From IMG/VR virus record IMGVR_UViG_3300037067_007193, positions 11,589-75,588 of that record: a DNA stretch of 64,000 nucleotides; one strand, written 5' to 3'. This stretch comes from a virus (Duplodnaviria > Caudoviricetes). How positions within the stretch are numbered: the first letter of the stretch is position 1; every line of letters starts with the position of its first letter. The notes under the pieces were generated by a model. It had not been told where the DNA came from, made no database searches, and saw only the letters and a list, made by a program, of their open reading frames with translations. Below, one piece after another: positions 2,415 to 60,492 of the stretch. The position numbers were made by a program, and so were the translations under genes.

Positions 2415-2735
2415 TATAAAGCATTTAAAGCTTTATATATTATATATACCCTAAGATATATAAGGTTTTTAAAAGCCTTTAAGTCTTTAAAGCCTTTAAA
2501 AGCCTTTATATATATACCTACTCTTAGAATATTATAAGCCTTTGTTCTTTGTCTTTAATAAAGAAAGACTTTATTATGATTAATAAACTTACAAGAAATA
2601 CCATTAATAAAGACAATGGTCTTTTAAATAATAAAGAGGATATTAAAGAAAAGAATAAGAATATTAATACTCTTAATAAAGATAATAATATTAATATTAC
2701 TAAAGAGAATAAGAATATTAATGTTGTTAAAGAGA
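2415..2735. repeat. AT-rich short-repeat region upstream of and inside terS
   Basis: AAGCCTTT at 2473, 2490, 2500, 2536 plus variants; GAATAAGAATATTAAT at 2653 and 2707. Confidence 0.7.
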
Positions 2736-3364
2736 ATAATAAAGTTATTGGTACGCCTTTAAATAATCCGTTCTATGAAGCCTTCTGTTTAATATATTCT
2801 AAGACTCTTAATAAAACCAGTTCTTATCTTCAAGCAAGAAAAGCAATTAAAGGCGATTCCATTACCGATGAAAGCGCATGTACTTCTGCTATCCGATTGT
2901 TAGAAGATGAAAGTATAAGAACAAGGCTTGCAGAACTGTTTGACCATACAGCAAATAGCTTGCAGATAAACAAGACTGAAATCCTGGAAGGTATACAACA
3001 CGAATTAGAGCTTGATCCGGCGACGGTGTTGGAATGGCAAGGCGATGCGCTGAAAATAAAAAGCCTTGAATCGATCCCGCTGCATATCCGGCGCACGATC
3101 AAGAGTATGAAACAGGCTAAGGACGGCAGTATTGAAGTGCAGTTCTACGACAAGCAGCGCGCCCGTGAACAGCTTATGCGCTTCTTGGGCATGTTATCCG
3201 ACAAGCTGGACATTAATGTGACGCATGACATCGGAAATACCTTGGCGGAGGCTCATACACGCTATTTGAGGACTGCCAGAAGCGGCGAGGTTCAGGCCCC
3301 CGAAGGTATTCAGGACGTAGAATATACAGAAATCAAGCCAGACGGCGGGAATGGAACGCATTAG
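2576..3364 (+). CDS. terS: terminase small subunit with Asn/Lys-rich N-terminal extension
   Basis: FCLIY..LNKTSSY..A...SAIRLLED.SIRTRL helical pattern and IEVQFYDKQRAREQLMRFLGM C-terminus, both typical of TerS. Confidence 0.75.
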   Translation: MINKLTRNTINKDNGLLNNKEDIKEKNKNINTLNKDNNINITKENKNINVVKENNKVIGTPLNNPFYEAFCLIYSKTLNKTSSYLQARKAIKGDSITDESACTSAIRLLEDESIRTRLAELFDHTANSLQINKTEILEGIQHELELDPATVLEWQGDALKIKSLESIPLHIRRTIKSMKQAKDGSIEVQFYDKQRAREQLMRFLGMLSDKLDINVTHDIGNTLAEAHTRYLRTARSGEVQAPEGIQDVEYTEIKPDGGNGTH

Positions 3365-4485: not shown

Positions 4486-4734
4486 ATGAAACGTGAATCC
4501 ATATTGGGGTTTTTGGGTGAATTGACGGAACTAACCAAGAAGTACCGGATAGCCGTTTCTTCTTCTCCGGATAGTGACTATCCCCTTTTGGTGGACCCGA
4601 CTGACGAGGAGACGTTGTGGGCCATAGACATGGATACGTTTAGGTGTGCGAAGTACGTTATTGCCAATGGGGATGATGTTGATGTGGAGGATCAATGGTT
4701 GATTAGGTTCCGTCTTGCGGCTGACGAAGAGTAA
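4486..4734 (+). CDS. hypothetical protein
   Basis: 82 aa, GGAG RBS. Confidence 0.55.
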   Translation: MKRESILGFLGELTELTKKYRIAVSSSPDSDYPLLVDPTDEETLWAIDMDTFRCAKYVIANGDDVDVEDQWLIRFRLAADEE

Positions 4735-5138: not shown

Positions 5139-5156
5139 TTGTATATTTTGATACAA
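5139..5156. promoter_or_regulatory. dyad, candidate enhancer for a sigma54 activator
   Basis: TTGTAT-N6-ATACAA (contains TGT-N10-ACA), about 65 bp upstream of the -24 box. Confidence 0.4.
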
Positions 5157-5218
5157 TATCTGCGAATTGTGATGGTGGGTGTGTTTTGAAATGAACAAAT
5201 AAGCGCAATGGCGTCTTC

Positions 5219-5234
5219 TGGCACGTTAAATGCT
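5219..5234 (+). promoter_or_regulatory. sigma54 (-24/-12) promoter
   Basis: TGGCACG-TTAA-ATGCT; GG-N10-GC spacing exact; one mismatch to TGGCACG-N4-TTGCW. Confidence 0.65.
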
Positions 5235-5355
5235 TGGGTATAAGCGGGGTTTTATACCTTTCTGCGTTTAAAACGTGAAAACCGGGGGATGCTTATGGGA
5301 AAATAAACCTGGACATTCTTGGTTTTTAGTTAAAGACAACGCGGGAGATGTAGAA

Positions 5356-10105: not shown

Positions 10106-10201
10106 ATAAACTATTAAATCTGTGGTATGGATGTGTAATAATATTCTGGTTGTGCGTGTTAATTGTGTATGCGGGATGTGAATTTCTACAATGGAGGAAA
10201 G

Positions 10202-10489
10202 ATGGTTGCGAATCCGAATGCGTGCGTTACAGCTGAAGTTCCCTTTACTCCGGCCTTCGCCTTGTGCGAACGGGTTGACCGCGTTTCGTCTCTCCGCGAC
10301 AGGGCGCAGTCAATTTCAGCCCTATGTGATTCGGTGGTGGACAAAATTCGAGGGTGCGAACCTTGTGTAACTGGCGCTCCCGAATGTACCACTCCCGCCC
10401 CCTGTTTTCTTTTGGGCCGTCTTGATATTGATTGTGACGATATAGAACACTGTCTCGGCGCGATTGAGAAACAACTTCGCAGATTGTAA
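10202..10489 (+). CDS. hypothetical protein
   Basis: GGAGG RBS before ATG 10202. Confidence 0.55.
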   Translation: MVANPNACVTAEVPFTPAFALCERVDRVSSLRDRAQSISALCDSVVDKIRGCEPCVTGAPECTTPAPCFLLGRLDIDCDDIEHCLGAIEKQLRRL

Positions 10490-10494
10490 GACAT

Positions 10495-10626
10495 GGCTTC
10501 GGCGGCGTGGCGAGAAGGCGGGGGTTGCTCCCTGTAGGTGAAGCCCGTACAGAAAGAGGAACGCTATCCTCTGTAACCGTTGATTAGCGTGGCGGTCCTT
10601 GCCGGTTCAAATCCGGCCCGAAGCCA
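10495..10626 (+). ncRNA. tRNA-like structured RNA (132 nt)
   Basis: GGCTTCGG/CCGAAGCC closing stem stacked on T-arm GCCGG-TTCAAAT-CCGGC; the interior is not a canonical D/anticodon arm. Confidence 0.55.
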
Positions 10627-10865
10627 ACAGAATTGCTCCACTACCATGCGTAGCAGGAGTTACGAAGCCGTTTCTTTTCGGGCGGCTTCAGCCTTAAAAC
10701 AACAGCCGGGGCGCTTAGGCGATACAAGAGGTGGACTTGCTTTACCGCTAAATGACCGGAAGGCCAATCCCCCGGCAACCCATTAAAACAAGCCCTTTGA
10801 CTCAGAGCGCGGTTCTACCCCGCAAGGGCTATTTGAATTTTTCTTCCCTTGTCACGGAGGGACAG

Positions 10866-12071
10866 TTGACAGACAAGTATGCAGACACGAACGCACGTTT
10901 GGCAGACCTGAAACAGATGTACAGTTTGTCTTCCCGCAAGATGGCTACCATGTGCGGGTCGGATGAGCGCAGCATCAGGCGGTATCTGAAAGGTTCCCGC
11001 ACCTGTCCGGCAGAAGTAATCTCCGCGCTGGAAAACAATCTCCGGCCGTCCGCGATCAAGGCTTCCCCGGACTCAGAACTGAAGCAGAAAGTGATGTCGC
11101 TTGCGCAGGTCGGCGCGGTGTCGGTCGGCGAGATTTCCCGCCAGCTTGACCGAAGCAAGGAAACAGTTGTCCGGCTGATAGACGAACTCCACCAGGAAGG
11201 ATACGAGATAGAGATAGACGAAGGCACGCGGCAGGTTGAATTGCGCCGGGAAACTAAGCGCGATTTCTCGTGGATAAATGTCAGCGACTTGTTCAAGAAC
11301 CAACTCAAGTTCCTGATGGTTTCGGACTCGCATTTCGGAAGTAAGTACCAGCAGCCCACCCTACTCCATACCGCGTATCATATCGCCGCAGAAGAAGGCT
11401 GTGCGTTCGGGATGCACGGTGGCGATTTGTCAGACGGACACCCCTCGATGCACAAAGGCATGATTTACGAACAGTGGTACAACGCCAACACCGATGATCT
11501 GGTTGACTACATCACAGATGTCTACCCGCAAGCCCCGTTCAAGACGTACATCCTGGACGCCGGAACGCACGACACGATCTTTGTCAAGATGTTCGGCTAC
11601 AACCTCGTGCGGAATGTCTGCCAACGCAGACACGATCTTGTCCAGCGCAAGGGCGACGAAGCGGTATTCGGGCATGACGGGCAGATACATTGCCGGTTGA
11701 GACACCCGACTGGCGGGGTGGCCTATGCCCGTAGTTACCACATCCAGAAGTACAACACGGCACTGATGGAACATGCCATGCACCTGATAGATGCTGGCGG
11801 CGCGGGAGAAGAATACAACCCGCGTGCCGTGTACCCGCATGTTGTGGCGGTCGGGCATTATCACCTTTCCATGTACATGCCGATGGCCGGGAGTCATGTG
11901 TTCGGACTCCCCTGTTTCCAGAGCCAGACGCCGTATCTCCGGGACAAGGGACTGTTCCCGCAGGTGGGTTTCTGGATAGTGACCCTGCACTTTGACTGCG
12001 ATGGCCGGGTAAGCAAGGTGGAGCCGCAGGCTTACCAGTGGACGCATCTGGTCAGGGAGAACGACTACTGA
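10866..12071 (+). CDS. HTH-HTH-calcineurin-like metallophosphoesterase
   Basis: TTG start after GGAGG; two HTH-like segments, then DSHFG, GDLSDG, GTHD, GHYH motifs. Confidence 0.8.
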   Translation: MTDKYADTNARLADLKQMYSLSSRKMATMCGSDERSIRRYLKGSRTCPAEVISALENNLRPSAIKASPDSELKQKVMSLAQVGAVSVGEISRQLDRSKETVVRLIDELHQEGYEIEIDEGTRQVELRRETKRDFSWINVSDLFKNQLKFLMVSDSHFGSKYQQPTLLHTAYHIAAEEGCAFGMHGGDLSDGHPSMHKGMIYEQWYNANTDDLVDYITDVYPQAPFKTYILDAGTHDTIFVKMFGYNLVRNVCQRRHDLVQRKGDEAVFGHDGQIHCRLRHPTGGVAYARSYHIQKYNTALMEHAMHLIDAGGAGEEYNPRAVYPHVVAVGHYHLSMYMPMAGSHVFGLPCFQSQTPYLRDKGLFPQVGFWIVTLHFDCDGRVSKVEPQAYQWTHLVRENDY

Positions 12072-12151: not shown

Positions 12152-13369
12152 ATGTCTGACTATACCGGCAGACCGCTTGTGTGTGTGGATTTTGACGGCA
12201 CAATAGCCAAGTATGACGGTTGGAAGGGCGTTGACAACTTCGGAGAACCAATTCCCGGAGCGCGTGAAGGATTGAACTGGCTGCGGGATAAAGGTTTCCA
12301 GATATGCGTCTGGACAACGCGGGGGAACAAGGACAAGATATGGGACTGGTTGGAAGACAATCAAATGCCCTTTGACTATATCAATGATGCCCCCGTGTTC
12401 GATCACCAGAACCCCGGCAAGCCACCGGCCAAGTATTTCATAGACGACCGGGCCGTCAGGTTTGAGGGGAGTTGGCTGCGCGTTAGGCGACAGATTGAAG
12501 AACTGGAAGAGATAGAACACACGCGGAATGGGGCGGCATACCACAACGGCATCGGCAAATCTGCAATCGGAATGCAAGATAGCCCGGATTCTAAACCGGC
12601 GTATCATTTTGCCGACTCCAGCAAAATGATAAAACCGGAAAACCATTTCGTTGACGCCGACAAAAAGGTCAGGTGTCCATCATGTCTCGAACCAATCAAC
12701 CCCAAACCCGCAAGAGATCAAGTCGGAGTTTTGTCCGCAACGTGCCGTGATTGCAAGATAGAAATCAGGTTTGGCGGTGATGGTCATTCTGTTGACGCCA
12801 CCGATATGATCCCCAAGTTTCGCGGAGTCTGTTTGTCGGGCAAGGCCCGGTCTGGTAAAGACTTGATATGTAAGATGTTGATAGACCGTCTTGGTGGTGA
12901 CTGGCATAGAGAAGCTCTGGCCGATGCACTGAAGGTGACATATTTTGATCTGATGATGTCAGAAAACATTATCGGGAGAAGTATACCGGAATACCAAAAG
13001 GTCATTTTAATCGACGAGCAAAAATCGTTTAGTCCACAGATCAGGGACGCCCTCATTTCGCTTGGAAAACGGCATCGCTCGGAAGATAAGGACTACTGGA
13101 TAAAACGGCTTCCGAACAAAGACCATGCCATAGTAACTGATTGCAGGTTTTTAAACGAACTGCAATTTTTCAAGGATAACGGTTATCTGACCGTCCGCCT
13201 TGAATGTACGGCAGAGACTTTGATTGCGCGTGGTCAGCCGCCGATAAACGACCCGAGCGAGACGGAACTGGATGGTCGGGATGACTTCGATGTTGTCATG
13301 GCAAACAACGCTGGTCTCGCAGTGCTTGAGAAGGCCGTGGATGAGATAGTTACTGCGCTTCGCTCTTGA
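12152..13369 (+). CDS. HAD-family phosphatase - Zn ribbon - dNMP-kinase-like fusion
   Basis: DFDGT and K..A.YFIDDRA (HAD); CPSC/CRDC; SGKARSGKD P-loop, ADALK, TDCRFLNE, SETELD. Confidence 0.8.
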   Translation: MSDYTGRPLVCVDFDGTIAKYDGWKGVDNFGEPIPGAREGLNWLRDKGFQICVWTTRGNKDKIWDWLEDNQMPFDYINDAPVFDHQNPGKPPAKYFIDDRAVRFEGSWLRVRRQIEELEEIEHTRNGAAYHNGIGKSAIGMQDSPDSKPAYHFADSSKMIKPENHFVDADKKVRCPSCLEPINPKPARDQVGVLSATCRDCKIEIRFGGDGHSVDATDMIPKFRGVCLSGKARSGKDLICKMLIDRLGGDWHREALADALKVTYFDLMMSENIIGRSIPEYQKVILIDEQKSFSPQIRDALISLGKRHRSEDKDYWIKRLPNKDHAIVTDCRFLNELQFFKDNGYLTVRLECTAETLIARGQPPINDPSETELDGRDDFDVVMANNAGLAVLEKAVDEIVTALRS

Positions 13370-13629: not shown

Positions 13630-14628
13630 ATGAGGAAGACGTTTGTGGTGGTTTTGGTTTTGTGGTTCTGTTCCGGTCTATTGGCACAGGTAACAACGAC
13701 GGCATGGGTAACATTTTCTACCCTGGATGATACTCTTGTTATAGGCAATCCCGTTAGGTCGATAACTGCGGATTTGACCGGACGTGTCTGGTGGGGAACG
13801 GCGCATGGATTATATAAACAGAGTGGTGACTCATGCCTGAGATATATTTATGATGATTCAAGTTTTGCTCAGAAGTCCAGAAATAACATTCTTTCTGTGG
13901 TGACAACGGTTGCTGGTGATCTGTTTAGTGCTTCTCCTGTCGGCTTAACTCAACACTCCGGTTTCAGTTTTACGTCCGATTCGCTGATTACATATCCGAT
14001 TTTACCAGATAGTGAAGTTACTATGTTGTGTCCCGACTCATCCGAAGATGGATTGATCTGGGGAGCTGGTGAGCAATGCTTGTGGCTGTGGGCCGACACG
14101 GTAGAAGCTAAATTGACTACCACGAGTGGTCTGGCTGGATATAAGGTCTACGATATGGTTCATGATTCTACACATTCATTCTGGATAGCCACCAATGGTG
14201 GTGTTAGTCGTCTAATAGATAACCATTGGATAACTTATACTACTGTCAATAGCGGATTGAATGGTAATGTTTGTTATACCATTGCCGTATCCGGGCGAGA
14301 TTCAAGTATCTGGTTCGGCGGGGATGACGGACTTGTCCAGTTTGATGGCGACACCACATGGACGGACTGGACGGATAGCCTTCCGAATCACCGGGTAAAA
14401 GATTTGGCCTTCTGCGCGGAAGATACGACCATGTGGGTGGCAACAGACAGTGGACTCGCAGCGTACAAGCCGAACCGCCCCTACCCTATCAGCACATGGA
14501 GAAAGTATTTCCCTGAAACCACCGGGGACAGCCTTCCGCAGTACCGGATTTTCTGTGTGTATCCCGACAGCGGTAAGTGCGTGTGGATCGGGCATTCGAC
14601 CGGGGTTACAAGGCTGAAGGAGAACTGA
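13630..14628 (+). CDS. secreted beta-propeller protein (two-component regulator propeller-like repeats)
   Basis: Signal peptide MRKTFVVVLVLWFCSGLLAQ; repeats such as D.TGRVWWGT..GL, DSTHSFWIATNGGV, MWVATDSGL. Confidence 0.8.
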   Translation: MRKTFVVVLVLWFCSGLLAQVTTTAWVTFSTLDDTLVIGNPVRSITADLTGRVWWGTAHGLYKQSGDSCLRYIYDDSSFAQKSRNNILSVVTTVAGDLFSASPVGLTQHSGFSFTSDSLITYPILPDSEVTMLCPDSSEDGLIWGAGEQCLWLWADTVEAKLTTTSGLAGYKVYDMVHDSTHSFWIATNGGVSRLIDNHWITYTTVNSGLNGNVCYTIAVSGRDSSIWFGGDDGLVQFDGDTTWTDWTDSLPNHRVKDLAFCAEDTTMWVATDSGLAAYKPNRPYPISTWRKYFPETTGDSLPQYRIFCVYPDSGKCVWIGHSTGVTRLKEN

Positions 14629-14834
14629 TGATGAATGGGTTCGGCGCAATGAGGATTTGGGCATTTCAAAGGCAAAAAGAAACAAGCAAGCGAGGTGTGG
14701 CGTGGTTTAACGACCAAGTGGGTCGCTTTGAAAAGGGCAAATACGATGCCCTGGAATTTGTTTTTATTAAAATGCTTTTGCAAATGTATCGCGATGAATT
14801 GTTTCAGGAAGAATGGAACGAAGACGATGTGTGA
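14628..14834 (+). CDS. hypothetical protein
   Basis: TGATG overlap with the upstream gene. Confidence 0.5.
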   Translation: MMNGFGAMRIWAFQRQKETSKRGVAWFNDQVGRFEKGKYDALEFVFIKMLLQMYRDELFQEEWNEDDV

Positions 14835-15316: not shown

Positions 15317-16816
15317 ATGGCATTTCAGGCAACGAGAGCGGATGACGAACTCGTAAAGTATCTGGCTCAGTTCTGCGAAGACCCGCTTGGCTTTGTCATG
15401 GCTGTATATCCGTGGCAGAAACAAGGGACGCTATTAGAAAACGAAACCGGCCCCGATACGTGGCAGGCTGAATATCTGACAGAACTTGGGAAGCAAATCA
15501 AAGAATGTCACGAGGGCAAGCGCGAGATAGTTCAGATAGCCACCGCCAGCGGTCATGGGCCGGGCAAAACTTGTCTTGTGGCGTGGATAATTCATTGGTT
15601 TGAAAGCACTTACCCGGACGCCCACCTTAACGTTACCGCCAATACCCAAGCGCAGTTGTCCGACAAGACGTGGCGCGAGTTGGCAAAGTGGAAAGCCCTT
15701 GCGATAAATGGACACCATTTTGAATGGACGGCAACATCGTATCGGTTTCTTGGCAGAAAAGAAACTCAATATGCGATGGCGATTCCGTGGTCAGAGCATA
15801 ATTCCGAAGCCATAGCCGGTCTGCATGAGAAATATGTAGGGGTAATTTTCGATGAAGCGAGTGGAATTGCCAACATAATTTGGGAAGCTATATCCGGGGC
15901 GATGACCACTCCGGGCGCGATATGGCTGGTATTCGGCAACATGACCCGCGCATCAGGTAGATTTTTTGATTGCTTCCACAAAGAACGGCATCGCTGGAAG
16001 ACGTTCTCGGTTGATTCTCGTACCGCGAAAAAAGCCAACAAGAAACTATTCCAGCAGTGGATTGATGACTACGGGATTGACAGCGATTATGTCCGGGTGC
16101 GCGTTCGCGGACTTCCTCCAAAACAGGCTTCTCTACAGTTCATTGCGACAAACACAGTTGAAGATGCCCTCAGGCGAGAAATATCCCCCGACACCTACCG
16201 ACACGCGGCAAAAATTCTTTCGGTCGATGTGGCGCGGTACGGGGATGATTCCACCGTATTCACGCTGCGTCAGGGATTGAAACTGTTCTGGAAGAAGAAG
16301 TATCGCGGCCTGAACACGATGGAAGTGGCGCAACTGACGGCGAGATTTGAAGACGAGGAAGAGCCGGATGCTGTATTTGTTGATGTTGTCGGTATTGGCG
16401 CTGGTGTAGTTGATCGGGGTAGGCAACTCGGCAGGCAATGGCAAGAACACAACGGGGCGCACTCGTCATCGGATAAGCAGTTCGCAAATAAGAGGGCGCA
16501 GTGTTGGGGAGAAATGCGGTGGTGGCTCGAAAAGGCGGACATGAGTGCAATCCCGCAAGAACAGCGTCAGGAATTGATAGATGACCTCACCGGAATAGAA
16601 TATTCGTATGACCGCGTAGACAGACTCATCCTTGAGAAAAAAGAAGATATGAAGGCGCGTGGATTGGCCTCCCCCGACAACGCCGACTCTCTGGCCATCT
16701 CGTTTACACAGAAGGTTATTCCCCGCCAGATGATCCAAGACGAGTATGACTACCAAGAACATGAAAGGGCGACACGCAAGGCAGACTCTTCTCGTAACCC
16801 GATAACCGGATATTAA
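15317..16816 (+). CDS. terL: terminase large subunit
   Basis: Walker A SGHGPGKT, Walker B VIFDEAS, nuclease motifs DVARYGDD and SPDNADSL. Confidence 0.92.
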   Translation: MAFQATRADDELVKYLAQFCEDPLGFVMAVYPWQKQGTLLENETGPDTWQAEYLTELGKQIKECHEGKREIVQIATASGHGPGKTCLVAWIIHWFESTYPDAHLNVTANTQAQLSDKTWRELAKWKALAINGHHFEWTATSYRFLGRKETQYAMAIPWSEHNSEAIAGLHEKYVGVIFDEASGIANIIWEAISGAMTTPGAIWLVFGNMTRASGRFFDCFHKERHRWKTFSVDSRTAKKANKKLFQQWIDDYGIDSDYVRVRVRGLPPKQASLQFIATNTVEDALRREISPDTYRHAAKILSVDVARYGDDSTVFTLRQGLKLFWKKKYRGLNTMEVAQLTARFEDEEEPDAVFVDVVGIGAGVVDRGRQLGRQWQEHNGAHSSSDKQFANKRAQCWGEMRWWLEKADMSAIPQEQRQELIDDLTGIEYSYDRVDRLILEKKEDMKARGLASPDNADSLAISFTQKVIPRQMIQDEYDYQEHERATRKADSSRNPITGY

Positions 16817-48055: not shown

Positions 48056-48868
48056 TCAATCCAATAGATCATAAATATTCCAAAATCTATTTGTAATGCC
48101 CGCAGCCATAGCGGGTGTCACGCTAAGGCTTTTATGGGCGCGAACAAAGTTATAATGCGCGAAATGCAACGCGACTGCGGCGCGAAGATTTTCAATCTTC
48201 TTACTAAACGCATTAGTAAGTCTTGTAAATCGCCTCATGCTCATTCGCATCGTGAGATTCTGGCGCTCAACGTAACTTGTCGAAATGCGTGCTATTTCTG
48301 GATGTCCACTAACAGCACCACGCGCCGCACTCACAACTTTGGGTGGGCTGTAGCGGCCAGGGCCGATTGCTTCGGCTTCATATGTTTTGACTAATTGACC
48401 ATAATCCACATTGCAACCAAATGCAGTTTCTATAGCTTCGGCGTATGCACTAAGGGCATCAGATGAAATCTGTACTCTATTTGCAAGACGTTCGGAAAGA
48501 TCAACCATAAATTTCGTAGCAGTCTCAAGATTTCTTTTGCCTACGATATGAGAAGGAACAAGTTTTGAGTCTGCATCAATCGCTACAAAAGTCCACTGAT
48601 CCCCAACACGCTCAGGATTGTCAGTAAGGGTTACGTGCCTCTGTTTTTTCTGAACATAAGTCCATATTTCATCTACCTGAATGTGACCGCAAGGAAGATT
48701 TCGCAATGTTTCATTCATAATATTTGCGCAGTTCTCTCCCGTAGAGACCGCCAGTCGCATGATGGTATCCCTGTGTACGCCGGTCATGCGCTCTGTAGAT
48801 CGAATGGAATTGCCTTCAATCAGGCAACTTATTACCTGCACCCTTTTATCTTTCTTTAGTTTATTCAT
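48056..48868 (-). CDS. IS1-family DDE transposase (HTH + DDE, no Zn finger)
   Basis: N-terminal HTH SIRSTERMTGVHRDTI; QVDEIW, SSDAL, VERQN. Confidence 0.85.
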   Translation of the reverse strand: MNKLKKDKRVQVISCLIEGNSIRSTERMTGVHRDTIMRLAVSTGENCANIMNETLRNLPCGHIQVDEIWTYVQKKQRHVTLTDNPERVGDQWTFVAIDADSKLVPSHIVGKRNLETATKFMVDLSERLANRVQISSDALSAYAEAIETAFGCNVDYGQLVKTYEAEAIGPGRYSPPKVVSAARGAVSGHPEIARISTSYVERQNLTMRMSMRRFTRLTNAFSKKIENLRAAVALHFAHYNFVRAHKSLSVTPAMAAGITNRFWNIYDLLD

Positions 48869-48891
48869 GGTTGTATCCCCCCTTTACTATA

Positions 48892-48920
48892 AATGTAGCA
48901 ACAAAAAGCCCACATGTCAA
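48892..48920 (-). promoter_or_regulatory. transposase promoter
   Basis: TTGACA-17 bp-TACATT. Confidence 0.65.
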
Positions 48921-48929
48921 GTTATTGTC

Positions 48930-48999
48930 TTGATTTGTAGTCACAAAAGTGCTACATTATAAATGAGGGTTGACTTGTAGTCACAAAAGGGATACATTA
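48930..48999 (+). repeat. two 30-bp direct repeats, each a promoter with an internal dyad
   Basis: TTGATTTGTAGTCACAAAAGTGCTACATTA and TTGACTTGTAGTCACAAAAGGGATACATTA, 40 bp apart. Confidence 0.75.
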
Positions 49000-49016
49000 A
49001 CTAACACGGAGGAAAG

Positions 49017-49211
49017 ATGGAAAAAACAGAATCCATAAGAATCAGGCTTGAAGCAGAAGAAAAAAAGGCGTTTCAACAAGCGGCGGATTTATCAGGTCTT
49101 GGATTATCAACATGGGCAAGGGAGCGCTTGCGGCGCTCGGCTATAAAAGAATTGGAAGAAGCCGCAATCCCCATAAAGTTTCTATTGCCAATAGAGCGGG
49201 AGGAAACATAA
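49017..49211 (+). CDS. RHH / DUF1778-like regulator
   Basis: SIRIRLEAEEKKAFQQAADLSGLGLSTWARERL; GGAGG RBS. Confidence 0.75.
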   Translation: MEKTESIRIRLEAEEKKAFQQAADLSGLGLSTWARERLRRSAIKELEEAAIPIKFLLPIEREET

Positions 49212-50915
49212 ATGGCCCAATTGCCCGAATCAATTGAATTTGAGATTAAGGGAATCGGAGAAGTACTGGCACAGAATCGCTTGGCTGTGCCTCTTAATCA
49301 AAGGGAATATTCGTGGGAAGAAGAACATATCAATGATTTATACACCGACTATGCCAATGCCATAGCAAAAGGACAAGGAAGTTATTTTTTAGGAACCATA
49401 GTTCTTACGCGGGGCGAAGGTGATGTTCCAGAAGTATCTGATGGGCAGCAGCGCCTTGCAACGTCCACAATCTTATTGGCGGCTATACGAGATTATTTTT
49501 TTAATAACGGCGATAATGTTAGAGCCACATCAATTGAACAAGAATATTTATTAAAAACTGACATAACAACCACAGATATTGTTCCTCAACTCCGGCTAAA
49601 TGTCGATGATAATGAATTTTTTAGCAAATCCATTCTATCATCTCCGAGCAGTCCAGACAGGAATATAAAAGCCACCAAACTGTCTCATGAACGAATAGAG
49701 CTTGCCGCTAAAACAGCGGCTGACCATATCGGAAATATAGTCAAACCCTTTGAAACAAAACCAAATCTCAAGACTGATCGCCTTCTTGAGTTGATAAAAT
49801 TTATACGCAGGGGCGCACAAGTTATTCTACTTCGCGTTCCTACCCATCTTAATGCTTTTCTAATGTTTGAAACCCTTAATGATCGAGGATTAAAAATATC
49901 TCAAGCCGATTTATTAAAGAATCATCTTTTTAGTTTTGCTGGTGACAGAATGAGAGAAGCGCAACACAAATGGTCAAAAATGTCTGGAATATTAGAATCT
50001 TTGGGAAAGGAAGATATCACTGTTACATTCCTCCATCATCTTTTAATCACAAAATACGGCCCCACAAAAGAAAGAGAAGTTTTTGATAAGGTCAGGCAGT
50101 TAGTTACCAGCCAGAATCGCTCAATTGAATTTTTGGAGGAGTTGGCCGATTCGGCGAACGACTACGCTGCGCTTTTTAATCCAGACCACAAGAAATGGAA
50201 TGAATATGGAACGACAACAAGAAAGAATATCTCTACAATAAACCGTGACTTGCGCATCGAACAGATTCGCCCGCTTATGTTTTCGGTGGCACGCCATTTT
50301 TCTGTTGAAGAAGGCAAGGCGGCTTTTCGCCTCTTCGTTTTTTGGTCTGTAAGAATTCTTGTTTATGGCACTCGTGGCGGATTTTTAGATCGTAATTATA
50401 GTATGCGGGCACAAGATATCGCAGATAGGAAGATTACCACGGCGGATGGCCTGAGAGAATCATTAACCGATGTTATACCTACAGATGCAATGTTTGAATC
50501 TGCTTTCGCGGAAGCACGCACTTCGCATCCTTATCTTGCGAGATATTATCTTCGGGCTTTGGAATTAAAACGCAAAGGTGATCCCGAACCTGAATTTGTT
50601 CCCTCGGATGAGGAACAATCAATCAACCTGGAACATGTTCTTCCAGAAAATCCAACCCCCGCCGAATGGTCAGATATTGATGCAGACACGGCGAAGGCTT
50701 TTTATTCAAAAATTGGGAATATGGTTATCTTACAGGCTAAAAAGAATACTTTGATAGGTAATAGCCGCTTCGACATTAAGAAGCCCGTTTTGAGAGAGTC
50801 TGCCTATATACTCACACAGCAGGTGGCAGAATATTCAAAATGGGGAATAGATGAGATTAAAGACAGGCAGAAAAAGCTGGCCGCATTGGCAGTGCAAACA
50901 TGGCCGTTAACATAG
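49212..50915 (+). CDS. DUF262-DUF1524 (GmrSD-like) restriction-type protein
   Basis: QREYSW, DGQQRL, FETLNDRG (DUF262); LEHVLP...GNMVIL...N...N (DUF1524 HNH). Confidence 0.88.
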   Translation: MAQLPESIEFEIKGIGEVLAQNRLAVPLNQREYSWEEEHINDLYTDYANAIAKGQGSYFLGTIVLTRGEGDVPEVSDGQQRLATSTILLAAIRDYFFNNGDNVRATSIEQEYLLKTDITTTDIVPQLRLNVDDNEFFSKSILSSPSSPDRNIKATKLSHERIELAAKTAADHIGNIVKPFETKPNLKTDRLLELIKFIRRGAQVILLRVPTHLNAFLMFETLNDRGLKISQADLLKNHLFSFAGDRMREAQHKWSKMSGILESLGKEDITVTFLHHLLITKYGPTKEREVFDKVRQLVTSQNRSIEFLEELADSANDYAALFNPDHKKWNEYGTTTRKNISTINRDLRIEQIRPLMFSVARHFSVEEGKAAFRLFVFWSVRILVYGTRGGFLDRNYSMRAQDIADRKITTADGLRESLTDVIPTDAMFESAFAEARTSHPYLARYYLRALELKRKGDPEPEFVPSDEEQSINLEHVLPENPTPAEWSDIDADTAKAFYSKIGNMVILQAKKNTLIGNSRFDIKKPVLRESAYILTQQVAEYSKWGIDEIKDRQKKLAALAVQTWPLT

Positions 50916-57840: not shown

Positions 57841-57888
57841 TGACTCTGGATCAGGAGTCTCCAGGTTCGAGTCCTGGTCGGGCAACCA
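57841..57888 (+). other. 3' half of tRNA-Gln(CUG), probable attP core
   Basis: TGA-CTCTGGA-TCAGG, AGTCT, CCAGG-TTCGAGT-CCTGG, TCGGGCA-A-CCA; no upstream D-arm or acceptor partner. Confidence 0.75.
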
Positions 57889-58984: not shown

Positions 58985-59182
58985 CTACTCCTCCTTTGCC
59001 TGGGCGGGAAAAGCATTCAACTCGGGGTGCTTCGAAATCGCTGCGCCCACCCACTGACCGACCTTGCTGTCTATCCACTCCTGTTTTACTTCTTCTGGTG
59101 GATTCAGCCAGAACCGCTTTGATTCAGCGCACCACAATTCCTCTGCCGCTTCTCGTAGCGCGGCTTCCATAAGAGTCTTCAT
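58985..59182 (-). CDS. hypothetical protein
   Basis: ATGA overlap with the integrase stop. Confidence 0.55.
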   Translation of the reverse strand: MKTLMEAALREAAEELWCAESKRFWLNPPEEVKQEWIDSKVGQWVGAAISKHPELNAFPAQAKEE

Positions 59183-60492
59183 CCTATCCTCGTTTGTCTC
59201 TCCGCTATCCCTCGGCAGTCACCTTGCGAGAGGTAGTGGTGTTGAGTAGTTGAAAAATCCTCGTGCCCCATTCCATTTTGTAGCTCAAGAGCATCTGCAC
59301 CCTCAGAGCGAATGTTTGCAGCATACACCCGGCGCAGATCGTGGAAACACATAGGAACTTTCTGTCCTGCTTGAATTGCTGTCAAGCCAAGAGCTTCAAC
59401 CGCAGCCTCGAAACCGGTCAACTTGGTATGCCCATCCAGGCGTTTCCCGAACCTGGACACGAACATCGGGCCTTCCTCTCTGTCCCCGATGTTTCTGACA
59501 AGTATCTCCGTTGCGTGCGGGCTGACTACCACAGTCTGATGCTTGCCCCCTTTTCTGCGGATAGTCACCCGGCTGAACACCCGGCACTGAATGTCCTTCG
59601 GAAGAACTTGAACATCCTCACAGCGCAGGCTGAATATCTCGTCCTTCCTCAGTCCGGTGTAGATGCCGAACATAACCATGTCCCGGTGCAGCTTGTTCCC
59701 GATTGCGTTCACGAGCGTCGTCTGTTCATCGCGGCTCAGGGATATTTCCCGCTTGTTGTCCTTCTTGGGCATGTCCATCTTGCCCTTGAGCGGATTAGTT
59801 TCGAGAAGCCCATCCTTGAGCGCTTGAGACAGCATTGCGCGGATCAGGTTTATCTCGGTGCAGATCGAGCTTGCGCTTGCCCCCTGCTGCTGCCGTCTGT
59901 AGACATAGGCGTCTATCGTGTACGGCTGGAGCAGTGACATTGGGCACCCTATCATTTCGGTGGACTCACCGATATGTTTCCAAGAGCATTCATAGCTGGC
60001 CCGCGTGTTCGTAGATACTTTTTTGCCGTGCCGGTCGAGGAACTTCAACCAGTACATCGAAAGCGTGACCGCCTGAGACTTAGCCTTCTCCTGCTTAACA
60101 AGTAATTCAAGTTTGGGATCGCGGCCCTCCTTTACACAACTCCACGTGAAATCGGAATGCTGTTTGGCTGCATCGTATCCGTCAAACTGTGCGCGCCTCC
60201 GCACGCCCATGAAGCGATAATCCACAACCCACTTTCCGTGTCTGTTCCGCTTTGGCTCCGGGTAACGCTCCATAACACCCTCCATGCCGCCGCGCACTTC
60301 CCGCGACTTCAACTTGTCACGGCGGCCTGAGAGTGTCAAGCATGACGCCTGATTTATTCGCCACTTGCGATATGTCCCGGACGGGTTTACATCCCGGCAT
60401 TCAAGCAAGCCATCCTGAACCATGCGGAAAAGTGACTGCTTCCCCACGCTCAGGGTTTCGCACGCCTGCTTGACTGTAAGCCAGTGAGACAT
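59179..60492 (-). CDS. int: tyrosine integrase with in-frame N-terminal excisionase-like HTH
   Basis: TGLRKDE, HDLRR, MGHEDFSTTQHHY; N-terminal WLTVKQACETLSVGKQSLFRMVQDG. Confidence 0.88.
   Translation of the reverse strand: MSHWLTVKQACETLSVGKQSLFRMVQDGLLECRDVNPSGTYRKWRINQASCLTLSGRRDKLKSREVRGGMEGVMERYPEPKRNRHGKWVVDYRFMGVRRRAQFDGYDAAKQHSDFTWSCVKEGRDPKLELLVKQEKAKSQAVTLSMYWLKFLDRHGKKVSTNTRASYECSWKHIGESTEMIGCPMSLLQPYTIDAYVYRRQQQGASASSICTEINLIRAMLSQALKDGLLETNPLKGKMDMPKKDNKREISLSRDEQTTLVNAIGNKLHRDMVMFGIYTGLRKDEIFSLRCEDVQVLPKDIQCRVFSRVTIRRKGGKHQTVVVSPHATEILVRNIGDREEGPMFVSRFGKRLDGHTKLTGFEAAVEALGLTAIQAGQKVPMCFHDLRRVYAANIRSEGADALELQNGMGHEDFSTTQHHYLSQGDCRGIAERQTRIG

Follow-up and report, generated by a model that had tools for sequence, protein, structure and literature searches.

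What might a phage do with a tRNA-like RNA whose anticodon loop has been replaced? The question is raised by an element of 132 nucleotides (nt) at 10495-10626 on the + strand of a stretch of viral DNA (Duplodnaviria; Caudoviricetes). The window, meaning the whole 64,000-nt stretch that was analysed, covers bases 11589-75588 of the 75.6-kb IMG/VR record IMGVR_UViG_3300037067_007193, which has an estimated completeness of 90%. The element is surrounded by + strand genes and is the sole tRNA-like gene of the genome according to ARAGORN, including its intron mode. We tentatively read it as a processed, non-decoding RNA that resembles bacterial selenocysteine tRNA (tRNA-Sec) and acts in trans as a mimic.

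The two ends of the element carry the parts that make it tRNA-like. The acceptor-type stem is formed by the 5' strand at 10495-10502 and its partner at 10618-10625, with 8 Watson-Crick pairs and pair probabilities of 0.97-1.0. The T arm (10601-10605 / 10613-10617) has 5 perfect pairs and the loop UUCAAAU, giving 13 perfect pairs in all (8+5). The 3' strand ends with an unpaired A at 10626 (10618-10626), which is followed by ACAG; CCA is not encoded. The first-pass annotation, made from the letters of the sequence, had described this 8-bp closing stem, T arm, discriminator A and lack of an encoded CCA, and all of them were found as described. It had also reported the absence of G3.U70, which is correct, since pair 3:70 is C-G. 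About 1.06 Mb of phage loci were scanned on both strands for an acceptor stem with a T arm. The scan returned real tRNAs, the tRNA-like elements of this study and two obviously spurious matches. In addition, the intron mode of ARAGORN reported only 2 "genes" in 30 shuffled 75.6-kb genomes, compared to the one call made on the real genome. Because the scan at the megabase scale was nearly clean and these calls were rare in shuffles, the combination of acceptor and T arm is not a chance product.

The standard models for tRNAs do not recognize the element. With default settings, ARAGORN found no tRNA or transfer-messenger RNA (tmRNA) gene in the window or in the whole genome, and its tmRNA mode (-m) found nothing, even with the threshold lowered to 70% (-ps70). 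Rfam 15 gave no match that reached the gathering score, and in the 551 nt surrounding the element there was none with E<=10 either. The tRNA-Sec model was negative as well, and the earlier description of a tRNA-like RNA that standard tRNA tools refuse is upheld. Only the intron mode of ARAGORN (-i) made a call. It proposes a tRNA-Arg(CCU) whose acceptor has 8 bp, whose variable region is long and which contains an "intron" of 37 nt. The first-pass annotation had named an intron-containing tRNA as a result that would speak against it, and formally this call is one. The model behind the call is weak, with a 2-pair D stem, a pyrimidine at position 37 and no bulge-helix-bulge.

The body that remains is of the selenocysteine type. 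In bacteria, a 13-bp acceptor domain arranged as 8/5 is the geometry of tRNA-Sec, the sole tRNA class that has it (PMC7609411), and the element shares this geometry. Directly 5' of the T arm lies the block GGCGGUCCUU (10591-10600), which forms the 11-mer GGCGGUCCUUG with the first G of the T stem. This 11-mer, followed by a generic T loop, was searched for in 185,579 genomes, one per species. It was found in T-arm context 23 times, and ARAGORN identified 20 of the 23 as tRNA-SeC(UCA), in Competibacteraceae, Acetobacteraceae, Beijerinckia and others. In these selC genes, the block corresponds to the spacer together with the 3' strand of the long extra arm. In the selC gene of E. coli, which was obtained independently of the GGCGGUCCUUG pattern, GCGGUCC is found at this position. 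Of 12 selC genes in an unbiased sample of Pseudomonadota, 5 contain CGGUCC and the other seven covary. The extra-arm 3' strand and spacer of the element are identical to those of some selC genes.

A second likeness is seen at the D arm. Directly after the acceptor, the element has the flanks GGCGU-7 nt-AGGCGG, where Competibacter selC has GGCGU-9 nt-AGGCGG. The flanks GGCGU and AGGCGG are seen in E. coli selC as well, and the three outer D pairs (C-G, G-C and U.G) are common to the element, Competibacter selC and E. coli selC. In the element, they make up a vestigial D arm (10506-10508 / 10518-10520) around a 9-nt loop containing GG, and the inner three pairs of the 6-bp D stem of the Sec type are gone. 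This remnant is recognized by comparison to selC only, and its pair probability in ViennaRNA is ~0. The link to tRNA-Sec is one of geometry and short blocks, not of a model score. The UCA anticodon in a 7-nt loop is missing, with 44 nt in its place. We conclude that the element has a Sec-type body yet is not itself a tRNA-Sec.

The replacement for the anticodon loop is structured. A 6-bp stem of the anticodon type (10523-10528 / 10573-10578) is present in both the minimum free energy (MFE) and centroid folds with a pair probability of 0.5, and ARAGORN -i takes 5 of its pairs as the anticodon stem. Where a 7-nt anticodon loop would be expected, this stem closes a 44-nt insert with two hairpins. 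Hairpin A (10532-10552) has an 11-nt loop on a 5-bp stem, or a 6-nt loop if the stem extends to 7 bp, with a pair probability of 0.69. Hairpin B (10555-10572; AGAGGA-ACGCUA-UCCUCU) has a 6-bp stem, its loop at 10561-10566 and a pair probability of 0.84. No near-optimal fold contains a 7-nt loop. The interior had been described as having no normal D or anticodon arm. Neither arm is normal, but the interior does keep the 3-bp D remnant and an anticodon-type stem with its loop replaced.

Next to the insert is a hairpin of the extra-arm (variable-arm) type at 10576-10596, ACCG(UU)/(GG)CGGU, with a loop of 9-13 nt that holds UAGCGU (10585-10590). Its core is 10576-10579 / 10593-10596 and can be extended to six pairs, including two G.U. 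The 5' strand of this hairpin overlaps the 6-bp stem at 10523-10528 / 10573-10578, so that the two are rivals; the hairpin has 4-6 pairs and a pair probability of 0.2. The fold with the 6-bp stem has a free energy of -56.0 kcal/mol and retains the acceptor, the T arm, both inner hairpins and the closing stem. The fold with the extra-arm hairpin, in which both complementary loops are free, has -55.2 kcal/mol. Because the gap is just 0.8 kcal/mol, thermodynamics does not decide between the two.

A possible contact between the two loops had been pointed out by the first-pass annotation, and the hairpins and the 6-nt complementarity that it described are present. The loop ACGCUA (10561-10566) is fully complementary to UAGCGU (10585-10590), and a 6-bp duplex of the two would have about -6.3 kcal/mol. 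A perfect 6-nt complement to a hairpin loop was seen in 12 of 400 shuffles of the interior (p ~0.03), which is suggestive but not significant on its own. Compared to selC, the element has two additions, 44 nt for the anticodon loop and ~9 nt in the extra-arm loop, and each of them carries one of the complementary hexamers. This makes a designed contact somewhat more plausible, although it is not a test. Since the insert is absent from the homologues, the interior fold and the loop-loop contact have no support from covariation, and we consider the contact possible.

Relatives of the element were found in other viruses. The large terminase (TerL) has relatives in 80 metagenome loci, and the element occurs only in the lineage of the locus L016 (identical to L017 and L020), whose TerL is 60% identical and whose kinase, Reg_prop and TerL genes are syntenic. 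The L016 element is 74 nt long (2474-2547). It has an 8-bp acceptor, its T stem is identical, and the T arm is preceded by GGCGGCCC and, farther upstream, by ACCG, with 27 nt between and no anticodon arm; ACCG...GGCGG is common to both elements. Four of the eight acceptor pairs differ on both sides between the two phages, and all of them are still Watson-Crick. These four double changes support the view that the acceptor/T module is under selection. The L016 element is preceded by ~270 nt of non-coding DNA, with no stop codon adjoining.

Two further observations concern the L016 locus. The 74-nt element sits in a 570-nt non-coding stretch (2201-2777) with several long hairpins around it. Behind the portal region (14441-14708) is an ordinary tRNA cluster with Ser(CGA), Ser(GCU) and a class-II Tyr(GUA), and this last tRNA is an indirect sign that the host is bacterial. 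Another relative, a phage with a TerL that is 60% identical, carries at 1336-1406 of locus L025 a 71-nt "tRNA-???" in the ARAGORN output. It has a 2-nt anticodon, D and T arms that look normal and an anticodon arm that does not.

Direct searches returned no other copy of the window element. Its exact 22-23-nt 3' end is absent from viral contigs, the 22-nt end occurs in none of the 185,579 species genomes, and blastn of the element against GenBank phages gave no match. The neighbouring metallophosphoesterase has 113 relatives, and in the contexts inspected (L008-L015) no such RNA is found upstream of it.

A pattern made from the window and L016 elements (GGCGGNCC, 2-6 nt, then a GCCGG T arm) identified four more viral contigs, and none of these matches is a tRNA by ARAGORN or Rfam. 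One of these viruses, G005 (IMGVR_UViG_3300018933_000004), has three copies of 62-69 nt with an acceptor, a hairpin and a T arm, each 8-9 nt past the stop codon of an unrelated gene. The copies are located at 59-120, 752-815 and 1501-1569 of locus L109 (G005:C1:65902-65963, 66595-66658 and 67344-67412). They have one common acceptor sequence, while their T stems and central hairpins covary. In an alignment of the three G005 copies and the L016 element, 48 of 48 cells pair, and 5 of the 12 pairs are changed on both sides. No shuffle reached the covariation score, and slid controls collapse. A model built from three small copies (R1) misses the window element because of its large insert.

When the T stem was left free, the GGCGGNCC pattern gave 81 viral matches, which is about the chance expectation. 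A perfect T stem is present in 29 of the 81, compared to ~4 expected. Only two of the 29 are canonical tRNAs (Val in L158 and Arg in L181). Nine or more are small acceptor/T elements, closed and 45-75 nt long, that no tool names, and several are longer irregular tRNA-likes, some of them within tRNA arrays. The idea that GGCGGNCC is a single conserved motif was rejected, as its context varies: it is found in a GGRC-GGCG-GYCC hairpin as loop plus 3' strand, or as the 3' strand of longer hairpins. The matches, which were gathered with a motif taken from the window element itself, are therefore treated as a loose collection and not as one family.

Several longer tRNA-likes were noted during this search. 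At 3881-3968 of L110 (the same in L125 and L183) and 6559-6644 of L173, RNAs of 86-88 nt lie inside phage tRNA arrays and are missed by ARAGORN. They have a 7-8-bp acceptor, an anticodon hairpin with CUUAUAA (UAU), no D arm and a 5' strand that pairs into the extra region; these are possibly allo-tRNA(UAU)-like. The elements at 8043-8176 of L167 (the same in L175) and on the - strand of L122 (~5150-5300) are 134 and 147 nt long, with 7-8-bp closing stems and three T-arm-like hairpins each. The L122 element, which is inside a 35-tRNA array, may be debris. On the - strand of L120, ending near 4640, there is a 100-nt long-armed tRNA-like with a UCA-containing loop and a 9-bp extra arm, which ARAGORN does not call by default.

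How such an RNA would be made and used can be proposed from its position and its parts. The 5' end of the element is 5 nt past the stop codon of a 108-residue open reading frame (ORF; 10163-10489), and no sigma-70-type promoter or intrinsic terminator consensus was found near the element. These two facts suggest co-transcription with the flanking + strand genes. Acceptor/T minihelices are known substrates of RNase P and of the CCA-adding enzyme, so the RNA, once transcribed and folded, should be excised and tailed. Host RNase P would cleave at the 5' end, and host 3' processing together with the CCA-adding enzyme would complete the 3' end. The expected product is a stable RNA of ~135 nt that is unable to read a codon. 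If the RNA folds as drawn, the upstream message is certain to be severed 5 nt past its stop codon, which we regard as a side effect.

The excised RNA would then tie up host proteins, or be a target for them, and these proteins would recognize the face made of the acceptor, T arm and extra arm without the anticodon. Seryl-tRNA synthetase (SerRS) would be the first candidate partner; SelA/SelB or a defence enzyme directed at tRNAs would come next. For recognition, SerRS relies on the long extra arm and the discriminator and makes no use of the anticodon (PMC5389517, PMC7609411), and a 13-bp helix is what Sec-specific proteins measure (PMC7609411). The acceptor helix, the T arm and the extra-arm strand have been kept by both homologous phages. 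A mimic acting in trans is favoured because these retained parts are the face that SerRS reads without an anticodon.

A number of results weigh against this reading. The whole molecule is only modestly more stable than its shuffles (MFE -56.0 kcal/mol, z = -1.85). RF01852 matches the T arm only, with 9.1 bits against a cut-off of 47 bits, and a model made from the 12 unbiased selC genes (R2) gave no + strand match at E<=10 with filters off. In a global alignment to 92 tRNAs, an irregular 90-nt phage "tRNA-Gln" came first and Sec genes were 2nd, 3rd, 7th and 9th, so this alignment gives weak support for kinship with tRNA-Sec. The 6-bp D stem with a 4-nt loop, which SelA uses, has been lost except for three outer pairs. 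SerRS prefers G73, and the element has A at 10626. The 44-nt insert was found in no homologue, and the nearest TerL relatives, L023 and L051 (68-77% identical), have no element within 10 kb upstream of TerL. Finally, PSTK/KTI12, SelA, a class-II synthetase core and a CCA enzyme, any of which might have served as a dedicated partner, are all missing from the proteins encoded by the phage.

The location of the element also fits a different explanation, namely RNA punctuation. The element would be only a cutting site for RNase P (and RNase Z/E) between the messages of the upstream ORF and the phosphoesterase/kinase genes, setting their stabilities, and the excised RNA would have no function. The element starts 5 nt past a stop, the next start is 125 nt past its end, neither a promoter nor a terminator consensus is nearby, and each of the three G005 copies is placed 8-9 nt past the stop of an unrelated gene. 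In addition, an anticodon is unnecessary for a cutting site. But for this purpose the acceptor/T helix would suffice, which leaves the Sec-type extra-arm strand, the 8th pair and the 100-nt structured interior unexplained. The L016 copy, moreover, follows ~270 nt of non-coding DNA and not a stop codon. Punctuation as the whole function is unlikely in our judgement, though it deserves to be taken seriously.

Another possible explanation is that the element is a decaying pseudogene, a once-functional phage tRNA on a Sec-like or allo-tRNA scaffold that lost its anticodon loop to an insertion and is now drifting. The D stem reduced to three pairs, the missing anticodon loop and a discriminator that is not G would all be consistent with decay, as would the absence of the element from the nearest relatives. 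Inactive allo-tRNA(UAU) genes with disrupted stems have been documented (PMC5389517). Yet the acceptor and T arm still have 13 consecutive perfect pairs, and both hairpin stems of the insert are perfect. The L016 homologue keeps its helix through four double changes, and the two insertions are complementary to each other (p ~0.03). We judge decay to be about as improbable as pure punctuation.

The mimic reading can be extended beyond this phage. In this extension, the window element belongs to an undescribed phage class of anticodon-less acceptor/extra-arm/T-arm RNAs that derive from Sec- or Ser-type tRNAs and range from 45-75-nt operon punctuators to the 132-nt form. Members would capture, or be charged by, host SerRS, the Sec machinery or a tRNA-directed defence enzyme, and the complementary insertions would lock a binding shape that the ribosome excludes. 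We offer this as a speculative proposal and rate it slightly below the two alternatives just described.

The ARAGORN call provides another alternative, an intron-containing tRNA-Arg(CCU) in which removal of 37 nt would leave a 95-nt long-armed tRNA reading AGG. Shuffled genomes seldom gave calls in intron mode (2 in 30), 12% of the arginine codons in 19 late genes are AGG, which is moderate use, and the "intron" pairs with the would-be anticodon. On the other hand, a group I ribozyme core takes ~200 nt or more, a length that 37 nt does not approach, and Rfam shows no group I match. The splice sites do not form a bulge-helix-bulge, as one is at a junction and one at the edge of a hairpin loop. 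The indirect signs point to a bacterial host, and bacteria are not known to have a tRNA-splicing endonuclease. Removing the intron at 32/33 leaves C37 and removing it at 37/38 leaves C33, and the D stem consists of 2 pairs plus a G:G. In the relaxed ARAGORN cloverleaf of the L016 homologue, the GGCGG block is in the anticodon loop and not in the extra arm, so the two models contradict each other. Taken together, a spliced tRNA-Arg is very improbable.

A DNA-level remnant of integration into host selC, either an attP core or a captured fragment and not an RNA gene, is equally improbable: selC is a classic site of integration, a tyrosine integrase gene is present and the 3' third of the element is its most Sec-like part, but the integrase is 49 kb off, the 22-nt 3' end is in none of the 185,579 species genomes, the matching 5' acceptor strand is present although an attP core would not need it, and the discriminator is A where selC has G. 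What probability remains falls to chance or to something unforeseen.

Some more specific identities were considered. The first-pass annotation had likened the element to tmRNA and to the YrlA Y RNAs. Kinship with tmRNA is not supported, with no call at lowered thresholds, no G3.U70 and no tag ORF. Kinship with the Y RNAs finds no support either, with no match in Rfam and no Ro/TROVE domain in the neighbouring proteins, which were the ones scanned for it, a genome-wide TROVE scan not having been made. A decoy against anticodon nucleases, which had also been suggested, is unlikely since no fold offers a 7-nt loop of the anticodon type. The element may act as a decoy where the target protein recognizes the acceptor, the T arm and the extra arm. 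A second T-arm-like hairpin, at 57861 of the window, was rejected, because no acceptor partner accompanies it and its location is a 17-codon ORF or leader. An RNA-repair module made of the RNA, the phosphoesterase and the HAD/kinase protein was not supported, since homologues of the kinase and the phosphoesterase occur without the RNA.

The neighbouring genes were also examined. The 108-residue ORF upstream is an orphan for which a search found no relatives. Downstream, 125 nt separate the element from the start of a gene for a 439-residue HTH-metallophosphoesterase (10752-12071, + strand). The N terminus of this protein is ~40-100 residues longer than in its 113 relatives, and the alignments start near residue 102-112. 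Its true start may therefore be downstream, in which case the non-coding gap after the RNA would exceed 125 nt. The genes that follow encode a HAD-phosphatase/P-loop-kinase fusion (12152-13369), a Reg_prop protein and TerL (15317-16816), and an ORF with a Terminase_2 (small terminase) domain is found 12 kb upstream of the TerL gene (2549-3364, + strand). At 10664-10689 (+ strand), 38 nt 3' of the element, there is a hairpin whose two arms carry the outer 6 bp of the acceptor stem again, with their order swapped. A U tract is lacking, the hairpin is not called as a terminator and it has no counterpart at the L016 homologue. This hairpin could be an alternative pairing partner for either acceptor strand or the footprint of a duplication.

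Farther away, a tyrosine integrase is encoded at 59179-60492 on the - strand, 49 kb from the element, and the phage is probably temperate because of this gene. The right third of the record (48056-50915 and 59179-60492) has an IS1-type transposase fragment, a GmrSD-family restriction endonuclease and the integrase, and looks like cargo of a temperate phage or adjoining host DNA. At 180-231 on the - strand there is a match to the Type-P5 twister ribozyme, with 49 bits compared to the Rfam gathering score of 37.6 (E 3.8e-7).

The genes for phage tRNAs are usually viewed as helpers for codon usage or as a means to replace tRNAs that host defences have cleaved. A non-decoding RNA that retains the parts for processing and for recognition by SerRS and the Sec machinery would point to a different use of tRNA mimicry by phages. 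Standard annotation overlooks the element, and the intron mode mislabels it as tRNA-Arg. With at least nine further unnamed small acceptor/T elements in other viral contigs, the class may be larger than one phage. The window element is a concrete and cheap object for tests, with 132 nt and one gene on each side.

The element can be compared to several known systems. As in a canonical tRNA, its acceptor stem stacks on a T arm whose loop is UUCRANY, but it has no cloverleaf D arm and no 7-nt loop with U33 and a purine at 37. It shares with the tRNA-like domain of tmRNA an acceptor/T helix, a long helix where the anticodon arm would be and the absence of anticodon decoding. In contrast to tmRNA, it has no G3.U70, no tag reading frame and no series of pseudoknots, and its acceptor has 8 pairs instead of 7. 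YrlA, which occurs in some phages, is likewise non-coding and imitates the elbow of a tRNA. Its ends, though, make up the Ro-binding stem and not an acceptor end, and its gene adjoins rsr; in the element, the ends make up an acceptor stem, and the scanned neighbours showed no Ro/TROVE. Phage T4 makes two stable RNAs, species 1 and 2 (rnaC and rnaD), which are ~120-140 nt long, are processed with the tRNAs, are encoded inside the tRNA cluster and have no known function. They resemble the element in size and in being encoded by a phage, whereas the element lies outside a tRNA cluster. The full-text literature searched held nothing specific on phage tRNA-like decoys. In the same limited search, neither an 8/5 Sec-type body with a replaced anticodon loop nor 45-75-nt acceptor/hairpin/T forms were found to be described.

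The comparison to bacterial tRNA-Sec (selC, RF01852) is the closest. Both have an 8-bp acceptor with a 5-bp T stem, the extra-arm strand GCGGUCC with a 2-3-nt spacer before the T arm, the outer D pairs C-G, G-C and U.G, and a long stem at the anticodon position. The element differs in having a 44-nt insert instead of the UCA anticodon and its 7-nt loop, a D stem of 3 and not 6 pairs with a 9-nt loop, an extra-arm loop of 9-13 nt and not 4-5, and a discriminator A and not G, with CCA unencoded. Sec-like bodies outside selenoprotein synthesis are known from phages and metagenomes as allo-tRNAs and irregular phage (8/4) tRNAs, and "polycistrons of irregular tRNAs" have been reported in sequences from phages and from soil (Mukai et al. 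2017, PMC5389517). Some of the irregular tRNAs are inactive in translation and have been suggested to be regulatory RNAs, and some are drawn as five-stem junctions (PMC5389517). Their branch has 12 bp (8/4 or 9/3), compared to 13 bp (8/5) in the element, and all of them carry an anticodon loop, none being described with the loop replaced. On these comparisons of sequence and predicted structure, the closest body plan is that of bacterial tRNA-Sec together with the Sec-like irregular tRNAs. Sec-like irregular tRNAs, some of them inactive in translation, are thus already known, and the feature that appears to be new, as far as our limited literature search goes, is an anticodon loop replaced on an 8/5 body of the Sec type.

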